Shown piece by piece: positions 25,551-39,922 of a stretch of DNA of 44,314 nucleotides. Under the pieces are notes generated by a model, which saw only the letters and a program-made list of their open reading frames with translations, was not told the DNA's origin and made no database searches. Within the stretch, counting starts at the first letter, position 1; every line of letters begins with the position of its first letter. The stretch is from a virus (lineage: Duplodnaviria; Heunggongvirae; Uroviricota; Caudoviricetes), in the IMG/VR virus record IMGVR_UViG_2579778807_000004. One strand, given 5' to 3'. The position numbers and the translations under genes were made by a program.

Positions 25551-25722
25551 CATTTCCTCTTTTAGTCTGTTATGACTGTCCTGGTACACAGTAGTGTCAA
25601 TTATATGGAGCAAACGTATAAAAGATAAGATGAAACATCGCAATAATCAACATACGACGGTCTAAATTTCACACAAACAGATAAAGATGATTATCATTTA
25701 TTATCAATGCATTAGAATCAAA

Positions 25723-25950: not shown

Positions 25951-26224
25951 CATGATGTTACCGTAGTATGTGAGTATCCATCGAATAGATACCAAGCAAA
26001 AAAGCTCCCGAAGGAGCCTTCATTTTCACTTTTTTAAATCCAACGACAGACGGCTGGCATTTAAGTATTGTGAAATATTATCAAATGTAATCATCATTGA
26101 TTTACAAAAGATACATTTTGCCCCGAAAGGATTCATGTCAGAAACATCAAAAGATGATGTTCTATACTGGGAACCATGACAACACGGGCATCTAAAGTGA
26201 ATATGGTTTGTAATATTGTCTACC

Positions 26225-26437
26225 TCAAAGCGCCACTACATGAACAGCGGCAGGACCTTTAGGTCCGTTCTCAATACCAAATTCAACTTCCTGATTCTCA
26301 GTTAATGTTTTGAAATCGTTGCTCTGAATTGCTGAGAAATGGACAAACACATCTTTGCTGCCATCTTTCGGCGTGATGAAACCAAAACCTTTTTCAGGGT
26401 TAAACCATTTCACTAAACCAGTCATTTTGTTAGACAT
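26225..26437 (-). CDS. Cold-shock protein, CspA family
   Basis: [35 protein letters not shown]... canonical cold-shock domain; long AT-rich 5' leader upstream. Confidence 0.92.
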
Positions 26438-26800
26438 AATTATTACCTTTTGAAGAAATTAGCCCTTGGGCAGAATGGTCCGAAAAAAAATATCAGAGAG
26501 AAAAACCAACAAGGAAATCTCAAGAGGTACAAATAATAAAATTATAACAATGACTGCTTCAGATAAATTTGTAACAAACCAGAACACCATTAACGCATGA
26601 TTAACCACCCATAGCAAGGATTACTTTTGTAAAGAAAAACACAGCAATGAAAGAATAGCTTTATTTATTAATAATAACGTGTCATTCTGATTAAGACCTT
26701 TTATCTTACCCTTAAGATTTCAGGAATTTTGGCTCATGGAAGAGTCCTTTTTATTTAAATTTTACATTCCGCGATGTAAATGTTCCGATTTAATATTACC

Positions 26801-33289: not shown

Positions 33290-33553
33290 TTATTCTTCTG
33301 CAAAAGCTGAAAAGCCTGCTTTTATTCCGATCTCTTTCAGTGCCTGTAATGAAGTGACAAACTCACCTTCGCGCAAGATAAATCCGTCTGTCACTCGACC
33401 ATCCACAAAATTAATTAACGCAGCCCCATTCTTTCGCAAACACATAATGCGGTAATGACTAACAAGATTTCCATTTTCAACGCACACAGCATAGAGGCCA
33501 TCTTCACAAAAATTTTTACGCAGTTCTTCGATGTTCATCATCATGTTCATCAT
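33290..33553 (-). CDS. Hypothetical small protein
   Basis: 87-aa ORF with Met-rich N-terminus between rem-like and hok. Confidence 0.35.
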   Translation of the reverse strand: MMNMMMNIEELRKNFCEDGLYAVCVENGNLVSHYRIMCLRKNGAALINFVDGRVTDGFILREGEFVTSLQALKEIGIKAGFSAFAEE

Positions 33554-33769: not shown

Positions 33770-33925
33770 TTACTCCTCAGGTTCGTAAGCTGTGAAGACA
33801 GCGACCTCCGTCTGGCCGGTTCGAATTCGTACCTCGCAAAGGTCTTTCCTCGTTACCAGTGCCGTCACTATGACGGTTAAACAGATGACGATCAGGGCGA
33901 TTAACATCGCCTTTTGCTGCTTCAT
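33770..33925 (-). CDS. hokD: Hok/Gef-family membrane toxin
   Basis: MKQQKAMLIALIVICLTVIVTALVTRKDLCEVRIRTGQTEVAVFTAYEPEE matches remembered HokD/RelF; 51 aa. Confidence 0.85.
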   Translation of the reverse strand: MKQQKAMLIALIVICLTVIVTALVTRKDLCEVRIRTGQTEVAVFTAYEPEE

Positions 33926-34155
33926 AGCCTGCTTCTCCTTGCCTTTCGGCACGTAAGAGGCTAACCTACATGTGTCTAGCATGAAATTGGCCTCAGATTA
34001 ATGTTAAGCGTCTTGCAGGACGCGTAATGTTAACTGGGGCTTTTCTCTATCTGCCTTTGGTGTTCATGCCTGAGACAGATAGCCTCAAGCACCCACGGAA
34101 ACTTTACTAAAGGAGTTATAGCTTTTCCAGTAGTCTCAACATATTCACATTGCTA

Positions 34156-35712
34156 TTACCTATCAAACAACGGATGTATTACAAAATCTCTCTTCATATC
34201 AGTAATATCCAAATTAGGTTTATCAAAAGATGAATATATAATTAAAGATGCTGTTTTCCTTATGCCAACCACGCCTACGACGAACCAGACTTTAAGTAAC
34301 TCCTCAAAATTCATCAATATTTTTGTATGTTGATCATCCTCTTTAACTACAGTCAATCTATCAAGTAAATGCTGCGATATATCATCTTTTACTGCTTGTC
34401 CTATGTTTGAGACTGTAAAATCAGAAAATGAAATCAAGGAAAGCACATCCAAATATTCTTCGATAAACGGATATATGCTTTTCCATTCTGTAACCAAAGC
34501 TCTCTTTCTGGACGAATAAAATTTCTCTTCGGCAATTAACACAATATTTTCATTCATGTTAACCATACCATCGCACTCAGAAAGACATATATTTACGAAA
34601 TTAATTGCATCTCTAGGCCTAAGCATTGTTCTGTCAAGGATATAATCATCTGCTCCAATACCTTCAACTGTAAAATTAAAAATATCCTTCATTAATACAG
34701 ACTTATTTGATTGATATCTATTTTTAACCAAATGGTTAATTCTAGCATCAATAATCTCTCTTATTTCCGTTTTATTCCATGATATGGAATATATTAAAGA
34801 TTGATCTTTCTCATCCTGCCTTAAACTACTTTTATAAATTCCCATTAAAATATCTGTTCTTATTGATATCAGAACCTTAACCGACTTTATATCTAATAAT
34901 TCTCGAAAGGCCTCAAGAAGAGCATTAATAAAGTCATATCTGATGGCGCTCGTGCTTAACCAAGATTTATCTAAATCATCGATACTGATTACTATTCTAA
35001 CCTGGTTTGAGTCAGCGAACTCCTCTTTAAGTATTTTAATAAGTTCTTTTTGTTTAAAAAGAAGTTCACGACTCACATAACTTGAAGTTTCTGATTGTAT
35101 TTTGGCTGTATCAGAATTAGATATTTTACCACCCACACCAACAGCGGAATTTCCGAGTTTGAATGACAAATCACTTTCAAGCTTGTTACTTATTTCAATG
35201 AGCGCTTTATCATTGAAGAAATTTTCTTTAAATTGTTCAATATAATCATTCGCAACTTCTGGTTTATACGGTTTCTTCTTACCACCAATAAGATCTTTAA
35301 TTTCCTCAAAAAAGCTTTGATAGGAAGAACGATAAACGGCTGGTATAACTTTCATAAGTAATACATGCAGCCATAACGATTTATAAAACCCACGTAAATC
35401 TATCCCTTTCGAGATCAAATCAGATATAAACACATTGTTATTAATATGTTCAAATATCGTATTTTCTGCCTCTATTGTGTCATGCAGCTTAATATTTCCT
35501 TTGTCTAATATTTTTTTAAGCAACGCAGACTTACCGCTTCCTGTTCTTCCAACAATAATTCTTCTTGTAAAATCAGGATTCTTCTCAGTAGAGTCAAAAT
35601 TCACAATACCTTTAAAAACATTGGACTCATAAAAACAAGCATCAAGATAAGAATCAGTTTCCGCCTCTAATTTTCCAATCTCATCATTATTTCTGAATTT
35701 ATAGGCATTCAT
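34156..35712 (-). CDS. P-loop NTPase of unknown family in an AT-rich island; candidate standalone anti-phage defence / abortive-infection protein
   Basis: Walker A IVGRTGSGKSALLKKI near N-terminus; Walker B-like VRIVISIDDLDKSW ~185 aa later; Arg-containing motif RTMLRPRD; strikingly AT-rich versus flanking phage genes; occupies the relBE-equivalent hotspot. Confidence 0.7.
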   Translation of the reverse strand: MNAYKFRNNDEIGKLEAETDSYLDACFYESNVFKGIVNFDSTEKNPDFTRRIIVGRTGSGKSALLKKILDKGNIKLHDTIEAENTIFEHINNNVFISDLISKGIDLRGFYKSLWLHVLLMKVIPAVYRSSYQSFFEEIKDLIGGKKKPYKPEVANDYIEQFKENFFNDKALIEISNKLESDLSFKLGNSAVGVGGKISNSDTAKIQSETSSYVSRELLFKQKELIKILKEEFADSNQVRIVISIDDLDKSWLSTSAIRYDFINALLEAFRELLDIKSVKVLISIRTDILMGIYKSSLRQDEKDQSLIYSISWNKTEIREIIDARINHLVKNRYQSNKSVLMKDIFNFTVEGIGADDYILDRTMLRPRDAINFVNICLSECDGMVNMNENIVLIAEEKFYSSRKRALVTEWKSIYPFIEEYLDVLSLISFSDFTVSNIGQAVKDDISQHLLDRLTVVKEDDQHTKILMNFEELLKVWFVVGVVGIRKTASLIIYSSFDKPNLDITDMKRDFVIHPLFDR

Positions 35713-36176: not shown

Positions 36177-37142
36177 CTACCCCCTGAATCCCGGTGGAAT
36201 TTCGCTGTCCGGCTCAGAAATATGATTCACACAACGCTGTACAGGTGAACGCCCCAGGCGAATGACCAGTTCATCCCATTTTTCGCGGAGCTTTGAAGGG
36301 CTCATGATGTTTTTTACCCAGAATGGATCTCGCTGAACCCGACCAAACATTTCGCAAATTTGTTTATGGCTTCTGCCATCCAGCATCCGCATTGTGCGCA
36401 CGTCATTAGCCCAGGCAGTCCAGTTAGGCTCTTTTGGTCGCATGATCTCGCCATCATCACTGGCGGCCTGTTCGTAAAGGCTCACGATTCGTGCCCAGAT
36501 CCATTGCGCACACGCCAAATCCTCCTGATTCCCCCACTGACGTTTTTTAGCACTGAAAACCACCGCGTCAGGATATTGGGTTAAATAATTCTGTTCAGCT
36601 GTCTGCGGGTCCGATTGCGAAGCTTCCGGACGAAAAGTGTTTTTATTCTCTGTAGTAATCTCTGTTGTATTCTCTGTAAGATCATCAGGCCATTTTGACC
36701 CGATGACATTGGGTCGTTTTGAACCAATGGAGCGTTTCATTTTGACCTCTTCCATCGTGTCATTTTGACCTGATGGAGCGGCGCATTTTGAACCGATGGA
36801 TTCGCTCAATTTGCCATCATCTAAAAGCTCGCTCCCATAGTTAATCGTGTAGAAATTGGTCATATCGCGCTTTGATTTATTGAGCTTTTCACAACGCAAA
36901 AGCCCCAGCGTTTTCAGACTTGCAAACGCGCGCTTTAACGTTGACTCTGACCAGAATGGGAACTGTTCCAGCCATTGTTCCGTTGTGTTGTAAATCCAGC
37001 GAACACCATCACATTCCATGCCGGAATTGGTATCTCTCAACCAGTAATGCAACTGCTGCAACACAATGGCTTCATTTAAGCCAATCTTCATCGCAAGCTG
37101 TGTGTTTATAACCAGTGGGCGTTCAGCAAAAAGAAGGCTCAT
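36177..37142 (-). CDS. Replication initiation protein (lambda O-like N-terminal replisome-organizer domain, divergent C-terminus)
   Basis: N-terminal region resembles lambda O DNA-binding domain; position downstream of cro/cII-like genes; start set at internal Met (track 37196). Confidence 0.6.
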   Translation of the reverse strand: MSLLFAERPLVINTQLAMKIGLNEAIVLQQLHYWLRDTNSGMECDGVRWIYNTTEQWLEQFPFWSESTLKRAFASLKTLGLLRCEKLNKSKRDMTNFYTINYGSELLDDGKLSESIGSKCAAPSGQNDTMEEVKMKRSIGSKRPNVIGSKWPDDLTENTTEITTENKNTFRPEASQSDPQTAEQNYLTQYPDAVVFSAKKRQWGNQEDLACAQWIWARIVSLYEQAASDDGEIMRPKEPNWTAWANDVRTMRMLDGRSHKQICEMFGRVQRDPFWVKNIMSPSKLREKWDELVIRLGRSPVQRCVNHISEPDSEIPPGFRG

Positions 37143-37644
37143 AATTCCATCCAGCTTTTTGTTGGTATTGCTGTCGATACGCAAGTTTGAAAGCAATTGC
37201 TTTTTCTATAAGTTCGTCAGTTTCACGATCCACTACGGCAGGATCAGCAAAAAGCAGTCCGGACTCCACCACATCGCCATATTCTTTGTTTAACCCGGCG
37301 ATCATGTACGTGATGCTTTTTCCGTCACTAATTTCACGATACAACCTGAAATCATTAATCCGGATAGCCTCCATAATTGCAGGCACTAGCGCCGTGAACT
37401 TTTCACGCTTATCCCTGGTGTCGATAGCCTTCCAGCGTTCGAATATCTTCACTCGATTAACGCCAAGCGCTCGCTGATCAACCGCGCCACCTTCATCTGT
37501 GACACGCTGAACATCGATGTTCGGGCGCTCTTTCAAAGCCCAGAATGCTTCAGTGATTAATATCGTCGCCTGCTCCTGTGTCATTCCTGGTCGACATATC
37601 CAAGCATCCAGAGCCTCACGAGCCTGTTCAGGAGTGATTTTCAT
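37123..37644 (-). CDS. Hypothetical protein at the cII position (possibly YdaT/CII-like regulator)
   Basis: 173-aa ORF translationally coupled downstream of the cro-like gene; family not confidently recognised. Confidence 0.4.
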   Translation of the reverse strand: MKITPEQAREALDAWICRPGMTQEQATILITEAFWALKERPNIDVQRVTDEGGAVDQRALGVNRVKIFERWKAIDTRDKREKFTALVPAIMEAIRINDFRLYREISDGKSITYMIAGLNKEYGDVVESGLLFADPAVVDRETDELIEKAIAFKLAYRQQYQQKAGWNYEPSFC

Positions 37645-37855
37645 TGTTCAACCGCCCCGCCCGCTTCGTCTTACGATATTCGTCATAAACCTTGGGATCA
37701 TACAGAAGCTCGCCGCCAGATGCCTCCTGTAGACGCATCGCGCGACCTTCAGGAACCAGCTCTTGCCATTGAGAAACAGCAGATGGGTCAACGCCAGCAG
37801 CTTTCGCTACTTTGGCTTTCGTACCGTAAAAATTAATTACGTCTGATTTAAACAT
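37628..37855 (-). CDS. dicC: Cro-like repressor DicC
   Basis: C-terminus ...VPEGRAMRLQEASGGEL.YDPKVYDEYRKTKRAGRLNNENHS matches remembered DicC; divergent from dicA. Confidence 0.8.
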   Translation of the reverse strand: MFKSDVINFYGTKAKVAKAAGVDPSAVSQWQELVPEGRAMRLQEASGGELLYDPKVYDEYRKTKRAGRLNNENHS

Positions 37856-37868
37856 CGCACCTCCAATA

Positions 37869-37882
37869 TTGAGTTTTCTCAA
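37869..37882. promoter_or_regulatory. Operator-like inverted repeat TTGAGTTTTCTCAA in the dicC/dicA divergent promoter region
   Basis: Palindrome TTGAG-N4-CTCAA; a second copy at 38405-38417. Confidence 0.5.
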
Positions 37883-37929
37883 TGCTAATCACTCAAGGAA
37901 TCTCAAGTCAAGGGTTATTAAGATATCTA

Positions 37930-38340
37930 AATATGAACGAGAAAACTTTAGGTCAACGCATTAGAGAAAGACGTAAGCAGGTAGGCTTAAGTCAAAACGG
38001 TTTAAGCAAAGCTGCTGGCGTATCTGGCTCATCAATTTCATTATGGGAAAGTGACCATACAGCCCCGCGCGGGCAAAATTTGCATCGCCTCGCCGAGGTA
38101 TTGCAATGTTCACCAACCTGGATACTGTTTGGCGACGAGGACAAAACACCAGCTCCCCCTGTTTCACTCGATAGTGCCTTAGACTTATCGGAAGATGAGT
38201 TAGAGATGCTGCGTTTGTATCGCGCACTTCCTAAATCAGAGCAACAAGCACAACTCAGCGAACTCCGCGCCCGCGTTGAGAATTTTAATCGCCTGTTCAC
38301 CGAGCTATTAGAGGCTCGCAAACGCAACAAGCATCAATAA
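37930..38340 (+). CDS. dicA: CI-type repressor DicA (XRE-family HTH)
   Basis: ...LHRLAEVLQCSPTWILFGDEDK...LSELRARVENFNRLFTELLEARKRNK matches remembered DicA; start at internal ATG (track 37882). Confidence 0.85.
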   Translation, partial: NMNEKTLGQRIRERRKQVGLSQNGLSKAAGVSGSSISLWESDHTAPRGQNLHRLAEVLQCSPTWILFGDEDKTPAPPVSLDSALDLSEDELEMLRLYRALPKSEQQAQLSELRARVENFNRLFTELLEARKRNKHQ

Positions 38341-38404
38341 TCATCCCTTCACAAAATTTTAAAGCCTTACATTTCAATGTATTGGCTTTATCTTGCGCCA
38401 ATAC

Positions 38405-38417
38405 TTGAGTTTTCTCA
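38405..38417. promoter_or_regulatory. Second copy of the operator-like repeat upstream of the ydfA-dicF-dicB operon
   Basis: CTTGAGTTTTCTCA repeated from the dicA/dicC intergenic region. Confidence 0.45.
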
Positions 38418-38532
38418 TCAAAAAACCTTGACGAAAAATAATGAGAAAACTAAATTACCTCCATCAACACACCGCACGGTGTTCTCAGCAAACAGTTCCG
38501 CTACCCCGGCGTTAAGGGGAAATGAGGTCAGC

Positions 38533-38685
38533 ATGGATACTATCGATCTTGGCAACAGCGAATCTCTGGTATGTGGCGTGTTCCCCAACCAGGACGGTAC
38601 GTTCACCGCGATGACATATACCAAAAGCAAAACGTTTAAAACCGAATCTGGCGCGCGTTGCTGGTTAGCCAGAAACACTGACTGA
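38533..38685 (+). CDS. ydfA: YdfA-like small protein (DUF1391)
   Basis: MDTIDLGN.ESLV.GVFPNQDGTFTAMTYTKSKTFKTE.GAR.WL.RN matches remembered YdfA; track ORF extends upstream. Confidence 0.7.
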   Translation: MDTIDLGNSESLVCGVFPNQDGTFTAMTYTKSKTFKTESGARCWLARNTD

Positions 38686-39062
38686 TGAGGCTGACGATGG
38701 AATTTAAAGATTTACCGTCTGATGTACAGAAAACAGCAGCTCATACATTGCATTCTGTGCTGCGAGAAATCGGGAAAGATATTGCAAGCGAGCCAGCAAA
38801 AGATCTGGCCCGGAAAATCAAGACCGCTTTCGTTGAGCTTTATAATGTTGGCACTGACTCTGAAACTGTCGAGACCAAGACCGTAAGTTCACCAATATTC
38901 TCACTTGAGCCAGGCGTATTAGCAGGTGAAATATGCACCGAGATTTCCAGCGAACTGCTTCCGGTAATACGAGAAGCAATTTGCCGTCGCGGTTTGGATG
39001 GAAGTTACGATCATGACGTCCTGCAAGTTCTCAGGACAATGGTGACTTCACTGGGGATTTGA
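38685..39062 (+). CDS. Hypothetical protein (ydfB/ydfC position)
   Basis: 125-aa ORF with ATG overlapping ydfA stop (TGATG). Confidence 0.5.
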   Translation: MRLTMEFKDLPSDVQKTAAHTLHSVLREIGKDIASEPAKDLARKIKTAFVELYNVGTDSETVETKTVSSPIFSLEPGVLAGEICTEISSELLPVIREAICRRGLDGSYDHDVLQVLRTMVTSLGI

Positions 39063-39506: not shown

Positions 39507-39562
39507 TTTCTGGTGACGTTTGGCGGTATCAGTTTTACTCCGTGACTGCTCTGCCGCCGTTT
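39507..39562 (+). ncRNA. dicF: DicF small regulatory RNA (FtsZ translation inhibitor)
   Basis: TTTCTGGTGACGTTTGGCGGTATCAGTTTTACTCCGTGACTGCTCTGCCGCC followed by TTTTT matches remembered DicF; between ydfA-region and dicB. Confidence 0.85.
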
Positions 39563-39733: not shown

Positions 39734-39922
39734 ATGAAAACGTTATTACCAAACGTTAATACGTCTGAAGGTTGTTTTGAAATTGGTGTCACTATCAGTA
39801 ACCCTGTATTTACTGAAGATGCCATTAACAAGAGAAAACAAGAACGGGAGCTATTAAATAAAATATGCATTGTTTCAATGCTGGCTCGTTTACGTCTGAT
39901 GCCAAAAGGATGTGCACAATGA
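39734..39922 (+). CDS. dicB: Cell-division inhibitor DicB
   Basis: MKTLLPNVNTSEGCFEIGVTISNPVFTEDAINKRKQERELLNKICIVSMLARLRLMPKGCAQ matches remembered DicB (62 aa). Confidence 0.88.
   Translation: MKTLLPNVNTSEGCFEIGVTISNPVFTEDAINKRKQERELLNKICIVSMLARLRLMPKGCAQ

Follow-up and report, generated by a model that had tools for sequence, protein, structure and literature searches.

A repeated palindrome as the probable operator of a DicA-like immunity repressor in an mEp460-like lambdoid prophage

Results

Gene content of the immunity locus

The window analysed in the present study is a stretch of 44,314 nucleotides of a caudoviricete genome (IMG/VR record IMGVR_UViG_2579778807_000004), and all positions given below refer to it. 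The genes and RNAs that bear on the immunity locus were as follows.

37933..38340, plus strand: repressor gene, DicA-like, 135 aa; Pfam HTH_3, E = 2e-15; 57% identical to K-12 DicA
37628..37855 (including the stop codon), minus strand: Cro-like gene, DicC-like, 75 aa; Pfam P22_Cro, E = 3e-16; 70% identical to DicC
37123-37644: YdaT-family gene, next to the Cro-like gene
38533..38685, plus strand: ydfA-like gene (DUF1391, Pfam), first gene of the predicted repressed operon
39508..39559, plus strand: DicF small RNA (Rfam RF00039, 72.5 bits), in the predicted repressed operon
39734..39922, plus strand: dicB, cell-division inhibitor gene, product 100% identical to K-12 DicB, in the predicted repressed operon
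33290..33553, minus strand: rem homologue, likely antirepressor gene, product 95% identical to K-12 Rem

The repressor and Cro-like genes were divergent, with their start codons 77 bp apart (37856-37932). The N-terminal helix-turn-helix (HTH) domain of the repressor was of the P22 c2 type: it matched the solved N-terminal domain of P22 c2 with E = 8e-16 and was about 47% identical to c2 residues 1-72. Only HTH families matched the repressor in Pfam, with no S24 peptidase domain. A longer, 152-aa frame starting at ATG 37882 was rejected because both P22 c2 and DicA align from ATG 37933, and because its extra codons would cross the operators described below. Since no Shine-Dalgarno sequence was evident ahead of the repressor ATG, the repressor mRNA is likely to be leaderless or nearly so.

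The gene order was that of the Qin prophage of K-12, which carries ydfA, DicF, an identical DicB and close homologues of Rem and DicC. The repressor had the same length as K-12 DicA and was nearly identical to it in the C-terminal half, with a divergent HTH region. A repressor of about 135 aa without an S24 peptidase, a ydfA gene followed by dicF and dicB, and a Rem homologue in the same prophage are the features of a DicA/DicC module. At the level of the whole region, 1.1 kb around the locus was 99.7% identical to phage mEp460_ev081 and 98.4% to HannyBb, and 797 of 5,426 complete E. coli genomes (~15%) contained at least 80% of it. The prophage is lambdoid and mEp460-like.

Several other elements were observed in the window. 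A 518-aa open reading frame (34156-35712, minus strand), located between hok/sok and the replication genes, matched the KAP-family P-loop NTPases (E = 1.6e-6). The nearly identical phage mEp460_ev081 has a different gene in its place, and this frame may be a cargo or defence gene. The Rfam search returned the sok antitoxin RNA (33920-34094), a cspA-type thermoregulator leader (26198-26583) and an IS009 RNA (1218-1416), which are cargo typical of Qin-like prophages. We also looked for a LexA box (CTGT-N8-ACAG) as a possible link of the switch or rem to the SOS response; the single match, at 25576, is at chance level and near neither gene. A perfect 14-nt inverted repeat was also present within the coding regions (37791-37804 and 38008-38021), where KAAGV, a peptide found in the HTH of the Cro-like protein as well as in that of the repressor, is encoded by the same codons on opposite strands. 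Because both arms vary in some haplotypes, this repeat is probably a coincidence or a trace of shared ancestry and not a functional element.

A palindrome repeated at both promoter regions

The preliminary description had reported the inverted repeat TTGAG-N4-CTCAA in the divergent promoter region and upstream of ydfA. We found exact copies of the 13-mer TTGAGTTTTCTCA at 37869-37881 and 38405-38417. The first copy extends into a perfect 5-4-5 inverted repeat at 37869-37882 (TTGAGTTTTCTCAA, TTGAG-TTTT-CTCAA), and the second (38405-38418, TTGAGTTTTCTCAt) matched it at 13 of 14 positions, its last base (38418) being T. An exact 13-mer common to both intergenic regions arose in only 99 of 200,000 mononucleotide shuffles (~5e-4). 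The 44-kb window contained four copies of the 9-nt core AGTTTTCTC, with 0.32 expected, and none of 100 shuffles reached this number. These results confirmed that the repeated palindrome is real and beyond chance. No papers were retrieved when the literature was searched with either strand of the 13-mer.

Further copies were located nearby. A third strong copy at 38441-38454 is inverted, has one mismatch to the 13-mer, and together with the second copy (38405-38417) makes up a 17-nt inverted repeat. Weaker copies, each with two half-site mismatches, lie at 37893-37906 and 37918-37931, between the first site and the repressor start codon. The loose pattern TTGAG-N4-CTCAA was not enriched over the whole window with up to two mismatches (16 found, ~21 expected), nor significantly with up to one (2 found, 1.5 expected), so the two weaker sites rest on clustering, position and conservation. 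As to clustering, 5 of the 16 loose matches fell within 586 bp, which simulated sequences achieved in 0.2% of cases (P ~0.002). A two-mismatch match at 34801-34813 was taken as a chance occurrence, as it lies within the long open reading frame at 34156-35712 (minus strand), distant from any promoter region.

The repetition itself might be fortuitous, and the exact 14-mer was indeed found in many unrelated viral contigs. These occurrences, mostly solitary, served as a negative control. Among 80 viral contigs with the exact 14-mer, the core was single (within 700 bp on either side) in all 72 that lacked a DicA-like gene, whereas the 8 contigs with a DicA-like gene all carried 3-4 copies. Together with the shuffle tests and the conservation footprint given below, this control leaves the chance reading a practically negligible probability, and we regard it as already effectively refuted.

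Position of the sites relative to the predicted promoters

The five sites, designated A, E, F, B and C in their order along the window, and a further match, D, are listed below. The OR and OL names are our own assignment, after the usual convention.

37869..37882: site A, TTGAGTTTTCTCAA; strongest predicted operator; counterpart of P22 OR1 and Qin Oc
37893..37906: site E, TCAAGGAATCTCAA; candidate weak operator; counterpart of P22 OR2 and Qin Om
37918..37931: site F, TTAAGATATCTAAA; candidate weak operator; counterpart of P22 OR3 and Qin Oa
37935..37948, minus strand: site D, with an exact AGTTTTCTC core at 37939-37947 (repressor codons 3-5) and 4 half-site mismatches; status uncertain
38405..38418: site B, TTGAGTTTTCTCAT; predicted operator; counterpart of P22 OL2
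38441..38454: site C, ATGAGAAAACTAAA, read on the minus strand as TTTAGTTTTCTCAT; predicted operator; counterpart of P22 OL1

Two promoter-like sites were found by a consensus scan.

37882..37911, minus strand: dicC/cro-like promoter-like site; TTGACT, 18-nt spacer, TAGCAT; equivalent of PR
38428..38456, plus strand: ydfA-dicF-dicB promoter-like site; TTGACG, 17-nt spacer, TAAATT; equivalent of dicBp and PL

The scan as such was not above chance (2 found, 1.4 expected), and both hits share the K-12 promoter layout. The dicC-like promoter-like site is laid out like the mapped dicC promoter of K-12 (PMC3441716), and the one ahead of ydfA is homologous to K-12 TTGACC-17-TAATCT and to P22 PL. With respect to these predicted elements, site A adjoins the -10 element (TAGCAT, 37887..37882) and spans the expected +1 of the minus-strand promoter, and site E spans its spacer and the edge of its -35 element. 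Site F, which we infer to be an operator, overlaps TAAGAT (37919-37924), the sole -10-like hexamer before the repressor ATG. At the other predicted promoter, 10 bp separate site B from the -35 element (TTGACG) downstream of it, and site C overlaps the spacer and the -10 element (TAAATT, 38451-38456). The centre-to-centre distances are 24 bp from A to E, 25 bp from E to F and 36 bp from B to C.

These positions modified the earlier picture in two respects. Both of the sites originally named were present, but the set comprises five, three in the divergent region plus two at the ydfA promoter. The copy upstream of ydfA (38405-38417) was found where it had been reported, but it lies upstream of the -35 element, and the -10 element is covered by site C, which had not been listed. 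A role of the repeat at the RNA level was rejected, because site B precedes its promoter, both orientations are represented among the copies, and 38330-38700 gave no Rfam match.

Site D was set aside as an operator on account of its poor arms, its absence in Buttiauxella relatives and its location off the P22 and Qin operator positions. It was lost in the same Buttiauxella relatives that retain A, B and C, and position 37939 was changed in one haplotype. Its core is unlikely to have arisen by chance, and it may be an auxiliary site specific to this lineage or else coincidental; a conserved operator role is probably not the explanation.

Conservation of the sites among close relatives

We collected 81 close loci (repressor 96-100% identical), which gave 56 distinct haplotypes of a 935-nt segment. 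Sites A, E and F had no variable column among the 56 haplotypes (for site A, 0 of 14), and 5 of 10 bases were variable on each side of site A. Site B showed a mean of 0.29 differing haplotypes per column, compared with 6.1 in its left flank and 3.7 in its right flank, and site C a mean of 0.14, compared with 4.6 and 3.1 in its flanks. Inspection of the raw variants revealed that the substitutions end exactly at the edges of the 14-mers. Site F was also conserved in C. braakii, where the operator differs, so its invariance may reflect promoter function.

As a related explanation, the repeat as a whole might owe its existence not to protein binding but to constraint on the promoter or the 5'-UTR, or to a shared origin of the two promoter regions. 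This would account for the overlap of A, C and F with -10 or +1 elements and for a short CCAATA flank common to A and B. However, the CCAATA flank varies among the haplotypes and the core does not. The core also occurs in three different contexts, namely at the +1 of one promoter, upstream of the -35 element of the other, and inverted over the -10 element of the latter. Moreover, relatives with the same -35 and -10 elements have other palindromes in place of the core. Taken together, these observations make an origin in promoter constraint or descent highly unlikely.

Correspondence with the operators of P22

The intergenic regions of P22 immC aligned with those of the window site for site, as follows.

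Site A, TTGAG-TTTT-CTCAA: P22 OR1, TAAAG-AACA-CTTAA
Site E, TCAAG-GAAT-CTCAA: P22 OR2, TAAAGGAATCTTTA, TAAAG-GAAT-CTTTA
Site F, TTAAG-ATAT-CTAAA: P22 OR3, TTAAGATGACTTAA, TTAAG-ATGA-CTTAA
Site B, TTGAG-TTTT-CTCAT: P22 OL2, TTAAGTTTTCTTCA, TTAAG-TTTT-CTTCA
Site C, ATGAG-AAAA-CTAAA: P22 OL1, TTAAGAAGTCTTAA, TTAAG-AAGT-CTTAA

It has been reported that the P22 repressor recognises six rotationally symmetric sites and contacts positions 2-7 and 12-17, and that the operator centre (8-11) is uncontacted, favours A/T and is read through an A/T-dependent groove shape (PMC4267663). The sites of the window have the same geometry, a 5-4-5 core around an A/T-rich 4-bp centre, and the TTTT centre found here fits the A/T preference of the P22 type. 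The spacings were also similar. The P22 OR sites are 23 and 25 bp apart, compared with 24 and 25 bp here, and the sites around the PL -35 element are 35 bp apart, compared with 36 bp here. The TTGACT -35 element and the TAAGAT hexamer occupy the same places in P22, and the Cro-like protein falls in the same P22_Cro family as P22 Cro.

The two systems differed in several respects. The arms are TTAAG/CTTAA in P22 and TTGAG/CTCAA here, so that the strong sites differ mainly by one base pair per half-site. In the right half-site of site E, the specificity position has C where P22 OR2 has T. The recognition helix is SNVAISQWER in P22 c2 and SGSSISLWES here. Unlike P22 c2, the present repressor is 135 aa long and lacks a peptidase domain. 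There is no equivalent of P22 OL3, and the leftward operon that is predicted to be repressed is ydfA-dicF-dicB, unlike in P22. We also observed that site F (37918-37931; compared with 402-415 of locus L097) keeps the P22-type TTAAG arm although the strong sites have TTGAG. This arm could simply weaken the site, or it could mark a site preferred by the Cro-like protein.

Phage 434 was much more distant. It shares the HTH_3 fold with weak similarity (434 Cro, E = 2e-6; 434 repressor, E = 5e-4), but its operator arms differ and the regions do not align. The 434 operator is likewise 14 bp long, with an uncontacted centre that prefers A/T.

Correspondence with the operators of Qin

Qin likewise has a set of three sites at intervals of about 25 bp and a pair of sites, 35-36 bp from one another, around the dicBp -35 element. 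Oc starts 15 nt from the dicC ATG, and site A starts 14 nt from the cro-like ATG. A previous study reported that Oc, a 20-bp operator which overlaps the dicC -10 element and occupies the position of site A, binds DicA in vivo and loses this binding through a single base change; from Oc, DicA represses dicC and promotes the expression of dicA (PMC3441716). Om and Oa, which correspond to E and F, showed no binding of DicA in vivo when cloned alone (PMC3441716). Deletion of dicA in K-12 raised dicBp activity 22-fold, and Rem relieves the repression of dicBp (PMC10448788). In addition, ChIP-seq of K-12 DicC gave peaks on both sides of dicA (PMC11430063).

The operator sequence itself was not that of Qin. 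The Qin operator is the 20-bp TTGTTAGTCATAACTAACAA with a 7-6-7 structure, whereas the core here is 14 bp (5-4-5) and of different sequence. The Qin operator TTGTTAG-N6-CTAACAA would indicate the same immunity, but the motif of this locus is TTGAG-N4-CTCAA, so the immunity is not that of Qin. The HTH is SHVSVSQWER in Qin, as against SGSSISLWES here. Because the operators and HTH regions differ, this prophage and Qin are expected to be heteroimmune. The Rem homologue accompanies a repressor in which the N-terminal domain and the operators differ from those of Qin but the C-terminal half is of the conserved DicA type. Judging from this pattern of sequence conservation, the C-terminal half of the repressor may be the target of Rem.

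Co-variation of the motif with the recognition helix

We compared 11 divergent loci, representing about 7 motif types. In two Buttiauxella loci, the repressor was 74-76% identical to the present one, the helix was SDSSISLWES compared with SGSSISLWES here, and the flanks had diverged. These loci retained the AGTTTTCTCA core in the same three places (A, B and C) and in the same orientations. In the other loci, the corresponding places carried different motifs: TTGTTAG-N6-CTAACAA in Qin and Citrobacter NCU1 (helix SHVSVSQWER), TTGTTGAG... in C. braakii (helix SHATISLWES), TTGTTAG-type motifs in Yersinia and Rosenbergiella (helix SHVTISQWE), and TAAC-N4-GTTA in E. whittamii and LSJC7 (L094 and L095). 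The helix of the Cro-like protein changed in parallel, being DPSAVSQW here and in Buttiauxella and RLASLYSW in Qin. The motif is invariant or almost so amid variable flanks and changes with the recognition helix in relatives, as expected from the suggestion that the repeat defines the likely immunity specificity.

The parallel change of the Cro-like helix raises the question of which protein reads the sites. If they were recognised solely by the Cro-like (DicC-like) protein, the repressor would use another sequence. Such a reading agrees with the Cro-like recognition helix co-varying with the motif as that of the repressor does, and with the K-12 DicC ChIP-seq peaks at both regions (PMC11430063). 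It conflicts with the binding of DicA to the K-12 site at the position of A, which is lost by a point mutation (PMC3441716), and with the identity of the homologous P22 sites as c2 repressor sites (PMC4267663). Moreover, no other repeated motif was common to the two intergenic regions; the only 8-mers that they shared belong to the core. We therefore consider exclusive recognition by the Cro-like protein very unlikely.

Another regulator might bind the sites, either the YdaT/CII-like protein encoded by the neighbouring gene at 37123-37644 or a host factor, since H-NS/Cnu and YjdC act at the K-12 locus (PMC3441716, PMC11430063). However, across species the motif changes along with the HTH helices of both the repressor and the Cro-like protein, and a host factor would leave unexplained why the motif has been replaced between prophages of the same host, Qin and the present one. 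Recognition by a third regulator is therefore extremely unlikely.

The leader of the ydfA-dicF-dicB operon

The leader of the operon (38457-38532) was conserved with K-12 Qin, as well as with loci L089 (1986-2046), L085 (2031-2096), L087, L090 and L095. Within it, an invariant GTTCCGCT is flanked by two hairpins, ACACCG-CA-CGGTGT and CCCC-GGCGTTAA-GGGG. Their stem sequences vary among relatives, and GCCT...AGGC in L095 amounts to two compensatory pairs by eye. RNAalifold on the leader returned 7 pairs only, with no changes on both sides, and Rfam gave no match in 38330-38700. The element lies at the position of P22 nutL, and the more distant loci L091-L094 carry GTTCTGAC and a lambda boxB-like hairpin whose loop is GAAAGA. 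The leader element is thus a possible nut-like site of antitermination.

Discussion

In the present study, we found that the repeat at this locus is very probably the operator of the immunity repressor, of the DicA/P22-c2 type, in a five-site switch of the P22/lambda type. The features of such a switch were found together: divergent genes for an HTH repressor and a Cro protein, several sites of the same consensus at both promoter regions, positional homology to tested operators (P22 OR/OL and Qin Oc), and co-variation of the operator with the recognition helix. The preliminary description had proposed that DicA represses both dicC and the dicB operon from related operators. This proposal was supported for a DicA-like repressor, but the protein is not DicA itself: the evidence supports operators of a heteroimmune DicA-like repressor that controls the dicC-like gene and the dicB operon.

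We propose that the switch would operate in the following way. A repressor dimer would read the 14-bp core through major-groove contacts to the TTGAG and CTCAA arms, leaving the A/T-rich 4-bp centre uncontacted, and would occupy A, B and C with high affinity. Bound at A, alone or together with E, the repressor would turn the dicC-like gene off and, by analogy with K-12 DicA at Oc, would also favour its own transcription; bound at B and C, it would turn ydfA-dicF-dicB off. Sites E and F would have lower affinity and be filled cooperatively or at high concentration, and occupation of F would limit repressor synthesis. The Cro-like protein, which probably uses the same sites as the repressor, would turn the repressor gene off from them, and a bistable switch would result. 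Because the repressor has no cleavage domain, induction is expected to proceed through the Rem antirepressor and not through RecA.

A more specific reading, which we consider unlikely, is that the locus represents a natural minimal specificity switch, in which a five-site switch of the P22 type has operators essentially one base pair per half-site away from those of P22 (TTAAG to TTGAG), matched by the helix changes N32G, V33S, A34S and Q37L. If this were true, site F and the intragenic site D might give unusual autoregulation and might allow cross-talk with co-resident repressors of the P22 or DicA type. Expression of the DicF/DicB cell-division inhibitors might then be coupled between prophages in many multi-element E. 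coli strains.

Within the P22-c2/DicA type of immunity, which is well known, what is new here is a previously unlisted specificity; no new mechanism is involved. For one immunity type that is widespread among DicA-family prophages, and also present in mEp460 and HannyBb, the motif is probably the operator code. With the sites known, co-immune and heteroimmune prophages could be predicted, and reporter and derepression experiments could be designed. P22, Qin and the present element could also serve as a graded series in which to compare repressor-operator specificities.
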